A stretch of DNA of 33,682 nucleotides from a virus. Taxonomy: Duplodnaviria > Caudoviricetes. The first letter of the stretch is position 1; each line of letters begins with the position of its first letter. A program made the translations under genes and the position numbers. Below the pieces are notes generated by a model that worked only from the letters and a program-made list of their open reading frames with translations, was not told the origin of the DNA and did not search any database. The stretch is taken from positions 1 through 33,682 of IMG/VR virus record IMGVR_UViG_3300032332_001133. The stretch is one strand, 5' to 3'. This document shows, piece after piece, positions 8,141 to 20,807 of the stretch.

Positions 8141-8157
8141 TATTCCCCCCTATTAGG

Positions 8158-8235
8158 CGGCCCGGATGGGATTCGAACCCATGACAAGCTTCAATTGCCG
8201 CGCTTGAAGTTACTCTACCTCTGAGCTACCGGGCC
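8158..8235 (-). tRNA. tRNA-like element / pseudo-tRNA with non-canonical anticodon arm; no isotype assignable
   Basis: Reads GGCCCGG-TA-GCTC-AGAGGTA-GAGT-A-[ACTTC AAGCGCGGCAATT GAAGC]-TTGTC-ATGGG-TTCGAAT-CCCAT-CCGGGCC-G. Perfect acceptor stem, canonical D and T arms, 13-nt anticodon loop, 3' CCT instead of CCA. Confidence 0.75.
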
Positions 8236-15227: not shown

Positions 15228-15515
15228 TTATGTCTCTCCGGCTACTTTAGTTTTCCGACTTCTTTTATCAGCTTTCGGGCCATCTTCCTCGATCTGAGTC
15301 CCGATCGTCTGAGCCAGCAAAAGGAGATCGGCTACGGTCCAGTCCTTGAAACGCTGATGGTAGTAATCGTCAATCTTGGTTTCGATGAGCTTCTCAACCT
15401 GAGCCTGGAGTCTATGGAGGTTGATAGGCGCACTAAATATTTGACTAACATAGTCGGATGCTGCCTTAATTTCTGCATGGCAGGTCTGTTCATTTTTCTT
15501 CAGAAAGTAACTCAT
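15228..15515 (-). CDS. Hypothetical protein, first gene of the late unit (95 aa from ATG 15515)
   Basis: In the ORF track as 15228..15536. I prefer the ATG at 15515 because the TTG start lies inside the predicted promoter. Confidence 0.65.
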   Translation of the reverse strand: MSYFLKKNEQTCHAEIKAASDYVSQIFSAPINLHRLQAQVEKLIETKIDDYYHQRFKDWTVADLLLLAQTIGTQIEEDGPKADKRSRKTKVAGET

Positions 15516-15771
15516 GCTCAAGAATACTACCAACACTGTTAACGAAACTCAATACAGTTATTACATCGACACGGTGGGTAGGGGCTGGCGGATTGAGGTA
15601 TTTGAGTCCCCTAGACGCTGCTACCAGCTTAAATGTAAGAAGTTGGCCTTCATTGAAATGACCCGTCAACTAAACGAATTGACCCGTAGAGAGTACCTTT
15701 GTCGGGACTGTTTCAAGGCCAGGGCTGTAGATTGGGGCTTAAAGAAGCTTGAGACCTTAGAGATTGAGTAG
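15514..15771 (+). CDS. Hypothetical Cys-containing protein (Cx4C...CxxC); start uncertain, possibly GTG 15574
   Basis: Only sizeable ORF between the strand switch and the non-coding region. Four Cys suggest a zinc site. No clear RBS. Confidence 0.5.
   Translation: MLKNTTNTVNETQYSYYIDTVGRGWRIEVFESPRRCYQLKCKKLAFIEMTRQLNELTRREYLCRDCFKARAVDWGLKKLETLEIE
15524..15552 (-). promoter_or_regulatory. Sigma70-like promoter TTGAGT-N17-TAGTAT (extended -10) for the minus-strand unit
   Basis: Located at the strand switch, 8 nt upstream of ATG 15515. Confidence 0.55.
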
Positions 15772-15788
15772 CGTCTAAAGTTTAGGCA

Positions 15789-15830
15789 GCAAATAAAAAA
15801 CCCCGGCTTTACTTTTCAGTAGAGCCAGGG
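15789..15830 (-). terminator. Intrinsic terminator on the minus strand, with no protein gene upstream of it
   Basis: Minus strand reads CCCTGGCTCTAC-TGAAAA-GTAAAGCCGGGG-TTTTTTATTTGC. Confidence 0.75.
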
Positions 15831-16370
15831 CTATTAAGATTTTGCGACAAATCTAAGATGAATCCTTTCTGCCTGCTCTTGGCGATTGAGTCAATCTTAG
15901 ATTTTCAGCCGAGAATTTTAGGCCCCCTCGATAAACGGTCTAAGTGATTACCCGAAGGTTACTCCTTTGGCGGTCAACGCTGGGACCAACACAGAATACC
16001 AGCAGGATTAGTTTAAACCGCCAAGCCAAGATGGACAGATTCGGTCATTAGGCCTCTCCGTCTGAAGTGCCGCTCGTTAACGGTAGGATGCCAATAATTG
16101 CGGGCAGGGGATATAGGTACAGCGGGTTTAGATATTGATCCGGTAGTAAAGAACGAACTGTAAGTAAGCTGAAAACACCTATCGTACGGGATTAGCCATA
16201 CCGTTAGACAGTGACAGGGGAATACCTGAGAGCTTGAGAAGTCGAGCTTTGAGTTAGCCCCCTGGACGGGCAGTGAACTGACAGACGCACATAGCCTTTA
16301 ACGCTTGCTAGCTATCATTCGTGGTAGGTAGGGGAATTGGCTACTATTGCCTATAGACAGCAATTTGTTA
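15789..16370 (+). ncRNA. Large structured non-coding RNA; candidate ColE1 RNA II-like replication primer / origin
   Basis: 624-bp gap with no credible ORF in an otherwise densely packed genome. Many nested helices and ColE1-like landmarks (see findings). Confidence 0.55.
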
Positions 16371-16395
16371 TCTTTAACTTCGGAGGACTCCAATT

Positions 16396-16581
16396 ATGTC
16401 AGACGGTTATTCAATCAAAGAACCTAAACTCAAAAGCGGTGGATCGAAAGATGCTTCCGCTTACTCGGAAAAAGCAGGGCAGGCTGGAACGGCTGCTCGT
16501 AAAGGCGCTCCCCTTGACTCAAAAGGCGGGACTGCTAAAAAGGATGAGCCGATCTACAAAGAAGCTTGCAAGGATCAGTAA
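16396..16581 (+). CDS. Small hydrophilic hypothetical protein (61 aa)
   Basis: GGAGG RBS; followed by a strong terminator. Confidence 0.75.
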   Translation: MSDGYSIKEPKLKSGGSKDASAYSEKAGQAGTAARKGAPLDSKGGTAKKDEPIYKEACKDQ

Positions 16582-17300: not shown

Positions 17301-17780
17301 ATGGCTGTAGAATTGACGCCCGAATATATGGCCAATCGTGTTTTAGAGCGAAGTGCCCCAGAGCCAAACACTGGATGCTGGTTATGGGAGGGGGGAACTG
17401 GAAATTCTGGTTACGGGAAAATTAGAATAGGCCATAAAAAAGACTACACAGCTCACAGGCTGTCATTCATGGCGTTTAATGGCCCCATCCCTAGTGGACT
17501 ATGTGTACTTCATAAATGCGATGTCAGGATCTGCGTAAATCCGGAGCATCTTTTTCTCGGTACCAAAAAAGAAAACAGCCAAGACATGGTTCGAAAAGGA
17601 CGAAATCACAGCCCTCAATGGGCAAAAACCGCTTGTCCTAAAGGGCATAACTATTCAGGAGTTAATACATATGGCCGGCGAATATGTGCAATCTGTAACA
17701 AAGCGACAAGGGAACGTTATCACACCAGGATTAAGTTTCTCCGAGAAGGAAAAGTTAGCAGCAGCGATAGCAAAGTCTAA
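17301..17780 (+). CDS. HNH homing endonuclease (159 aa)
   Basis: GCWLWEG...GYG...AHRLSF...VLHKCDVRICVNPEHL..GTKKEN core and a C-terminal CPKGH...CAIC zinc ribbon. Confidence 0.92.
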   Translation: MAVELTPEYMANRVLERSAPEPNTGCWLWEGGTGNSGYGKIRIGHKKDYTAHRLSFMAFNGPIPSGLCVLHKCDVRICVNPEHLFLGTKKENSQDMVRKGRNHSPQWAKTACPKGHNYSGVNTYGRRICAICNKATRERYHTRIKFLREGKVSSSDSKV

Positions 17781-20613: not shown

Positions 20614-20807
20614 CTGCCAGTGAAATGATCTGTCTAGGTTGTGAGAAGGTTGTAAACCTAAACTCTATGGGGCTTTGCATTCCCTGCAGAACCTCAACCT
20701 GTAAGAAGTGCGGTAAAGAGTTCAAGTTTAGCAAAGATCGGTCTGACCACTGTTCTCAGTGCCGGTTAAAACGTCGAAAGCAGCTATCACGTCATCAAGA
20801 CTTCTAG
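20610..20807 (+). CDS. Cys-rich zinc-finger protein (65 aa)
   Basis: Four CxxC pairs; ATGA coupling at 20610. Confidence 0.65.

Follow-up and report, generated by a model that had tools for sequence, protein, structure and literature searches.

The gap of the window contains a conserved structured RNA, encoded on the plus strand at about 15844-16350. This RNA very probably has some role in replication initiation and, as judged from its sequence, is probably a replication origin that acts as its own primer in the manner of ColE1 RNA II. The window, the whole stretch of DNA that was analysed, corresponds to an entire virus record (33,682 bases) with a completeness rating of 96%. Genes for terminase, portal, capsid and tail occupy the minus strand, a short early block lies on the plus strand, and both ends of the record fall within tail-like ORFs. 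Replication genes had been described as missing in a preliminary description of this DNA. This was borne out by scans of 45 proteins against PHROGs and 19 against Pfam, as no initiator, primase, helicase or polymerase was found in the window. An element-encoded initiator protein, the absence of which characterises the ColE1 family, was not found in the window. Likewise, no replication genes were recognisable in two complete genomes bearing the RNA (G001, and G002 with terminal repeats).

The slot occupied by the RNA is bounded on its left by a small plus-strand ORF of 85 aa (15514..15771) and on its right by another of 61 aa (16396..16581, plus strand), homologs of which follow the slot in the related loci L041 and L171. 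The 85-aa ORF gave no family match and displays abundant third-position changes in L001 and X2. On the 3' side of the 61-aa ORF, SSB-like, repressor-like, HNH and RecT-like genes were identified; the product of the first is presumably SSB-like in view of its acidic DIPF tail, and gave no family match. Along with the RecT-like annealing protein, a resolvase-like nuclease is encoded in the window. The HNH endonuclease gene (17301-17780, plus strand) overlaps the start of the RecT-like gene and is unmatched in the close relatives compared. A tRNA-Pro (cgg) is located amid the structural genes (8156-8235, minus strand), and tRNAs are also present in L186 and L048.

Terminase identity to cultured phages does not exceed about 25%, and no close cultured relative was found. 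Two loci in archaeal or Parcubacteria bins were obtained in the terminase scan; both were probably misbinned, and therefore no host can be assigned. A GTDB scan with the RNA motif gave no match, and the DNA runs containing the gap came mostly from freshwater metagenomes. The GC-skew inflection anticipated near 16350 in the preliminary description was not there; instead the minimum is at 15571. GC skew was dropped as evidence for an origin, as this minimum and a second turning point at 20740 both coincide with coding-strand switches.

Conservation and fold of the RNA

Eleven distinct sequences of the RNA were identified in six lineages (the window with L001, L004 and L014; L181; L184; L049 with L140; L045 with L142; and L186), and a further copy in L092 is partial. 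The motif scans were noisy, with 13 of 20 and 10 of 18 matches in two scans lying outside the RNA family. In three unrelated viral contigs (L198, L201, L212) a small ORF is followed, at the motif match, by conserved non-coding DNA containing inverted repeats, which was rejected as unrelated to the RNA family of the window. Searching plasmids and annotated phages with the gap by blastn produced chance matches only. In the X2 strain, the gap (584 nt) had 3 listed changes and the flanks (502 nt) had 37, a difference which still gives a p value of 2e-6 when six unlisted differences are all counted in the gap.

The gap had been described as structured, and its plus strand indeed folds better than shuffled sequences (z -3.0), the minus strand not clearly so (z -1.5). 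The elements of L049 and L184 fold well too (z -6.1 and -3.3, respectively). Helices were taken from folds of individual sequences (window and relatives) and counted in an alignment of six members that had been made from sequence alone. In this alignment 91% of the cells are paired, and double-sided changes were detected in 29 of 69 pairs. Shuffles gave 9.5 +/- 2.3 such pairs and slid partners at most 13, the structure being favoured over the latter control as it was derived in part from the sequences tested. The gap is thus conserved in homologs, and it covaries. RNAalifold independently produced a near-identical fold (39 of 99 pairs), and the two core hairpins counted over all 11 sequences gave 12 of 21 pairs against 6.5. 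Unpaired invariant motifs are also present in the RNA.

The motifs and complementary arms quoted in the preliminary description were all located as described, and its helices were partly confirmed: the AGCTTGA stem is 100% paired, but several others differ from the conserved set. The TTGGCGGT/ACCGCCAA arm sits in an insertion specific to the window, while ACAG/CTGT and CGGGTT/GATCCG are paired in 50% and 67% of the cells, respectively, with few or no compensatory changes. The ATAGGT/ACCTAT helix, with 81% of the cells paired and double change in 4 of 6 columns, may be a real alternative pairing. Altogether that helix set gave 11 of 40 pairs, five of which came from the stem common to both sets and four from ATAGGT/ACCTAT.

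No covariance model of Rfam 15, with ROOL, GOLLD, ARRPOF, PAGEV, group I intron, RNase P and tmRNA among its families, matched the window or 7 related loci, not even at E 1-2; the Rfam scan suggested at the outset has thus matched no family. The motifs of the survey on ARRPOF, PAGEV and GEBRO should for the most part be in Rfam. No tmRNA was detected by ARAGORN. A group I intron, considered from a likeness of motifs, was ruled out, as there was no Rfam match and the element lies outside any gene.

Covariation alone cannot separate RNA from single-stranded DNA, according to PMC5737381. If replication were recombination-dependent or of the rolling-circle type, a folded ssDNA could serve it as lagging-strand or single-strand origin, which would also suit a phage with RecT-like and resolvase-like gene products. 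Such an element is highly improbable here: folding as DNA was no better than shuffles (z -0.7), invariant G-U pairs are retained in the RNA family, a promoter-like site is present at the head of the element, and initiator-bearing relatives retain the same recombination genes.

The RNA is likely transcribed; we infer a length of about 500 nt, and its structure is backed by covariation. The first element in 11 of 11 members, with changed stems, is an A-tract followed by a hairpin (15791..15830), which resembles an intrinsic terminator on the minus strand. It is a candidate for the end of an antisense RNA or for a late-operon insulator. The hairpin was not listed in the terminator scan, and no antisense promoter was found (1 weak minus-strand site against 2.1 expected). 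An A-tract hairpin is also located 5' of the initiator-like gene of L041, and is therefore not specific to the RNA. Inside the hairpin, a sigma70-type promoter was predicted on the plus strand at 15808..15837 (-35 TTTACT, 18 nt, -10 TATTAA). Using weights that were set after the sequences had been viewed, the promoter-like pair of the first hairpin scored in the 82nd-100th percentile of the locus background in all 16 slot elements scored, against the 34th in L041 (protein slot) and the 62nd in ColE1. Transcription would start near 15844; when folded from this position, both the MFE and the centroid structure of the window matched the covarying fold (z -2.0), while no match was obtained from 15780. 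The start earlier proposed at about 15789 was abandoned, since this position and its -10 have their context in 1 of 11 members.

The core domain (16005..16141, plus strand) is delimited by a closing helix (16005-16018 with 16126-16141) and includes hairpins at 16029-16063 and 16072-16105, with double-sided changes in 11/14, 6/7, 2/4 and 2/6 pairs. The internal G-box GGCAGGGGA (16103..16111, plus strand) is unpaired in the consensus fold, and its predicted partner is the template DNA at the 3' G-box. Further downstream, a long plus-strand stem-loop (16215..16264) harbours an internal CUGA motif, with CTGA in 11 of 11 members; its upper stem is 100% paired, with double change in 5 of 9 pairs. 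At the base of this stem (16229-16256 region), CUGA lies opposite UGAG; the predicted motif has a G-G mismatch and may be bound by a protein or make a tertiary contact. The terminal hairpin with the 3' G-box GGTAGGGGA (16327-16335) covers 16304..16335 on the plus strand and is 79-100% paired without any double change. It is followed by a conserved pyrimidine-rich tract (16342..16352, plus strand), within which the RNA-to-DNA switch is predicted by analogy with the ColE1 spacing only.

A promoter-like site for the early genes downstream (TTGCCT, 16 nt, TG-TATCTT; 16347..16374, plus strand) is retained in L001, L004 and L014, and also in L041, where the RNA is absent. Being located upstream of the early operon (from 16396) and on the same strand, the RNA could be seen as a cis-regulatory leader of the attenuator or riboswitch type. 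This is extremely unlikely considering that the operon has its own promoter-like site, retained in L041 without the RNA, and that the genes downstream of the slot vary among members of the RNA family.

Exchange of the RNA with initiator-like genes

RNA and initiator-like genes are exchanged allelically at the slot. The terminase of L041 shows 78% identity, and along the 493 nt that lead to the slot this locus and the RNA-bearing L004 are 94.5% identical. From the downstream promoter L041 resembles the window again, and an ORF of 193 aa lies in between. The 193-aa protein has no matches of its own in PHROGs or Pfam, and 5 of its 13 homologs match PHROG replication-initiation families. Replisome organisers and replication proteins were among the named viral fold neighbours of its structural model (pLDDT 72.5), and the six top PDB matches were initiator, Rep-DNA and N-terminal DNA-binding-domain structures, with non-significant E-values. 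A search for iterons in the gene revealed just repeats of a low-complexity linker. In L171 the slot is occupied by the gene of a 292-aa protein, which is nearest to Lin1244_N, replisome-organiser and DnaD clusters (atlas 0.96) and gave no PHROG match of its own; a loader-like gene adjoins it. Both swapped proteins are likely to be replication initiators.

In a terminase tree of 39 rows, built by a quick method and with RNA or protein states assigned by hand, L041 and L171 nest among RNA-bearing phages (clade support 100, inner 99), and the well-supported branches require at least three state changes. The terminase genes of L041 (3237-5627) and G001 code for about 800 aa and are interrupted by what is probably an intein. 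When 143 ORFs upstream in relatives were scanned, replication proteins were found in L094, L103, L117, L109, L070, L081 and L084, and the RNA model had no match at any of these loci.

The distribution of both modules was analysed in 15 near-complete genomes, namely the window and 14 relatives (13 at 99-100% completeness, one at 88%; G008 minus its last 320 bases). Clustering of ORFs of at least 100 aa resulted in 185 clusters without homolog in the window, and 92 proteins were scanned; the unscanned clusters were regarded as structural or spurious, or were covered through relatives in the upstream-ORF scan. In three genomes (G004, G008, G010) an initiator-like gene is present and the slot RNA is missing; ten have a long non-coding element only, two have neither, and none has both. 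The exact probability of this exclusion, calculated by hand and ignoring relatedness, is 10/455 = 0.02. Among the ten, the RNA family of the window is present in the window, G001 and G002, and other RNA types in G003, G006 and G007, while G011, G012, G014 and G015 display long non-coding stretches, mostly well folding, that were assigned by inspection only. The two genomes with neither module (G009, L229-L230; G013, L237-L238) are complete and lack a recognisable initiator as well as a long slot RNA; a promoter is followed there by a short G/C-rich non-coding stretch.

A second RNA type of about 530 nt with a strong fold occupies the slot in L047 (1890-2400), L048 (2945-3490) and L091 (7205-7740), always on the minus strand. 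It is unrelated to that of the window, compensatory changes are visible, and the L048 element had no match in Rfam. A third type was found in L053 (8380-8920, minus strand) and L194 (5330-6030, plus strand); L053 has only the first hairpin in common with the window, and G012 (L235 1516-2261) shares the short GTATCTAAAA motif with this type. Unique long non-coding elements were seen on the minus strand of L058 (1600-2075), L098 (7310-7790), L123 (5000-5500) and L241 (400-870), and in L240 (1923-2623) and L233 (1436-1765). Most of them begin with an A-tract hairpin containing a promoter-like pair, and they are possibly more new RNA families.

The presence of several unrelated RNA types would also be compatible with a slot that is a hot spot for cargo, the RNA being a large phage RNA that acts in trans like GOLLD/ROOL, or else a ribozyme, with no part in replication. 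Size, multi-helix fold and own promoter are similar in those RNAs, as described in PMC5737381. However, Rfam gave no match, both slot proteins in close relatives are initiator-like, and the two modules occur together in 0 of 15 genomes. Such a function would moreover leave replication unexplained and does not predict the repeated G-box; it is considered quite unlikely.

Twin G-boxes and the proposed primer function

The unpaired G-box past the second core hairpin recurs near the 3' end of the RNA, at a spacing of 222-256 nt. An internal G-tract with a matching origin-proximal tract about 245 nt further on is a hallmark of ColE1, the G-runs of which at +288 and +535 are 247 nt apart. The two boxes are identical in L049 (AGGGGATGC), L045 (CAGGGCTTA) and L186 (GCAGGGCGT), match at 9 of 10 positions in L181 and at 8 of 9 in the window, and are weaker in L184. 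They vary in concert: the true pairing was the best of 720 permutations over six lineages, where p = 1/720 overstates independence as the lineages are related, and L004 was outside the six permuted. The idea of twin boxes predates the discovery of L181, L184 and L186.

No conserved complement of the G-box was found within the RNA (best 7/9, at shifting positions), and the full complement is therefore on the template strand only. Nor was there a further segment of the RNA able to pair with each box in turn. In single-sequence folds of L184, L049, L045 and L186 the G-box is partly paired. The concerted change is as required if the RNA pairs with template DNA, and a single protein binding both boxes would also explain it. 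In ColE1, the persistent hybrid needs a stretch of rG in the RNA paired with a dC stretch of the template, as stated in PMC4412123. The remaining RNA types of the slot show no clear twin G-boxes; G015 has GGGGAG twice, 215 nt apart. The slot element of L046 (151-1227, minus strand) shares its first 155 bases with L049, differs in its 3' part and shows no clear twin G-boxes. Directly 3' of it lies an RNase H gene (E 1e-36), the sole one among the loci examined.

The slot exchange, the concerted G-boxes and the RNase H gene of L046 support the Rep-less, RNA-primed origin which the preliminary description had proposed, whereas the ColE1 landmarks and the start on which it had been based did not hold. 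Along this line, host RNA polymerase would initiate near 15844, and folding of the transcript, in the form backed by covariation, would expose the internal G-box. During passage of the polymerase through the 3' G-box, some 224 nt downstream, the internal box of the transcript would pair with the C-rich template and nucleate a persistent R-loop, as suggested by the concerted repeat and the precedent of ColE1. By analogy, RNase H would cleave near 16345-16352, a host Pol I-type enzyme would extend the 3' end of the RNA, and host restart proteins would load the replisome onto the displaced strand. The primer RNA might perhaps be regulated by an antisense transcript that terminates at the minus-strand hairpin.

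The slot exchange and the absent replication genes fit equally well with an RNA that activates the origin without being the primer. Transcription or an R-loop would then open the duplex, or the folded RNA would recruit a host initiator or primosome, and host primase would prime. ColE1 can replicate in this way without RNase H, according to PMC4412123, most members encode no RNase H, and a protein could bind the invariant unpaired motifs. On the other hand, the ColE1-like spacing of the twin G-boxes and the RNase H of L046 suggest hybrid formation and cleavage, and this activating role is regarded as unlikely. Preference is given to the RNA as primer.

Relation to ColE1 and other replicons

The RNA likely works like RNA II, and its descent from RNA II is not supported. 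A check against NC_001371 (L010) indicated that the ColE1 landmarks are as given in the preliminary description; the four colinear matches taken as its basis proved mostly lineage-specific. Out of 11 homologs, landmarks 1 and 4 are present in 1 (the window only), 2a in 3, and 2b and 3 in 4; landmarks 2 and 3 are kept solely within the clade of the window, and landmark 4 overlaps the -35 of the site at 16347..16374. Pairwise comparison with ColE1 RNA II gave z values of 1.5-1.9 with lax gaps and -0.4 with strict scoring for the window, and of 3.1-4.4 and 1.1, respectively, for the best homolog (L004). No match to ColE1 was found by RNA-family profiles, blastn or the covariance model R1; the latter contains 6 base pairs only, so that its negatives are mostly at sequence level. 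Membership in the ColE1 family is thus not supported by the sequences. Remote common ancestry was considered because a CAGC helix arm lies 9-10 bases past the internal G-run in both RNAs, and is judged rather doubtful.

Apart from this arm, the phage element shares with ColE1/pMB1 the lack of a Rep gene, an RNA (predicted in the phage) of about 500-550 nt with a structured fold, an internal G-run recurring near the 3' end about 245 nt on, and a terminator (in the phage, a terminator-like hairpin) on the opposite strand at the 5' side. In contrast to ColE1, where the promoter lies upstream of the hairpin, that of the phage is apparently inside the terminator hairpin. The phage G-box comes after a hairpin in a multi-way junction, whereas that of ColE1 is in a simple stem-loop. 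An A-run is absent at the predicted origin of the phage, where the conserved tract is T-rich and landmark 4 is limited to 1 of 11 members. Also unlike ColE1, neither an RNA I promoter nor Rop was found in the phage, the host element is a tailed phage, and the RNA swaps with initiator-like genes.

According to PMC3035462, Rep-less, RNA-initiated replication was known from two plasmid families only, as of 2010. The second one, the MRB origins of Vibrionaceae plasmids, resembles the phage element in lacking Rep, in a terminator-like repeat and in its RNA II, which measures at least 465 nt (PMC3035462). The paper describes these origins as a case of convergence with ColE1, which sets a precedent for RNA-based replicons that arose independently (PMC3035462). 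They differ from the phage element in belonging to Vibrionaceae plasmids and in having a demonstrated antisense RNA, that of the phage being hypothetical (PMC3035462). Homology to MRB origins or their RNA I was not seen by blastn in the plasmid collection, which may exclude MRB plasmids. In T4, a promoter-driven transcript primes the phage origins oriF and oriG through a persistent hybrid, as the phage RNA would do by prediction; oriF and oriG consist of a promoter and an unwinding element and are served by the replisome of T4 itself, according to PMC4412123. Unlike T4, the window combines a large covarying RNA with a lack of recognisable replication genes.

ARRPOF, PAGEV, GEBRO, ROOL and GOLLD, which are likewise large structured motifs from plasmids or phages, are comparable, and ARRPOF lies in a region supporting Rep-independent replication, as reported in PMC5737381; unlike them, the RNA of the window has no Rfam match even at E 1-2. 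The structured RNA family is probably new, a point on which the motif tables of PMC5737381 could bear. The literature available as full text, with subscription papers mostly outside, yielded no account of this RNA, nor of tailed phages with an initiation module made of RNA only.

Taken jointly, the data lean slightly towards a widespread group of small freshwater podoviruses that begin replication without any protein of theirs, by means of a third and independent family of RNA pre-primers. The slot would be a swappable replicon cassette in which at least three unrelated primer-RNA families and several protein initiators take each other's place, one lineage having captured an RNase H. If true, Rep-less RNA initiation extends to viruses, with a folded RNA as the whole initiation module, and this would be one answer to the question of complete phage genomes without replication genes. 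With their matched G-box pairs, the lineages offer a natural compensatory test, in an RNA unrelated to RNA II, of the R-loop model established for ColE1. They also indicate several more undescribed large RNAs, possibly new orthogonal replicons.
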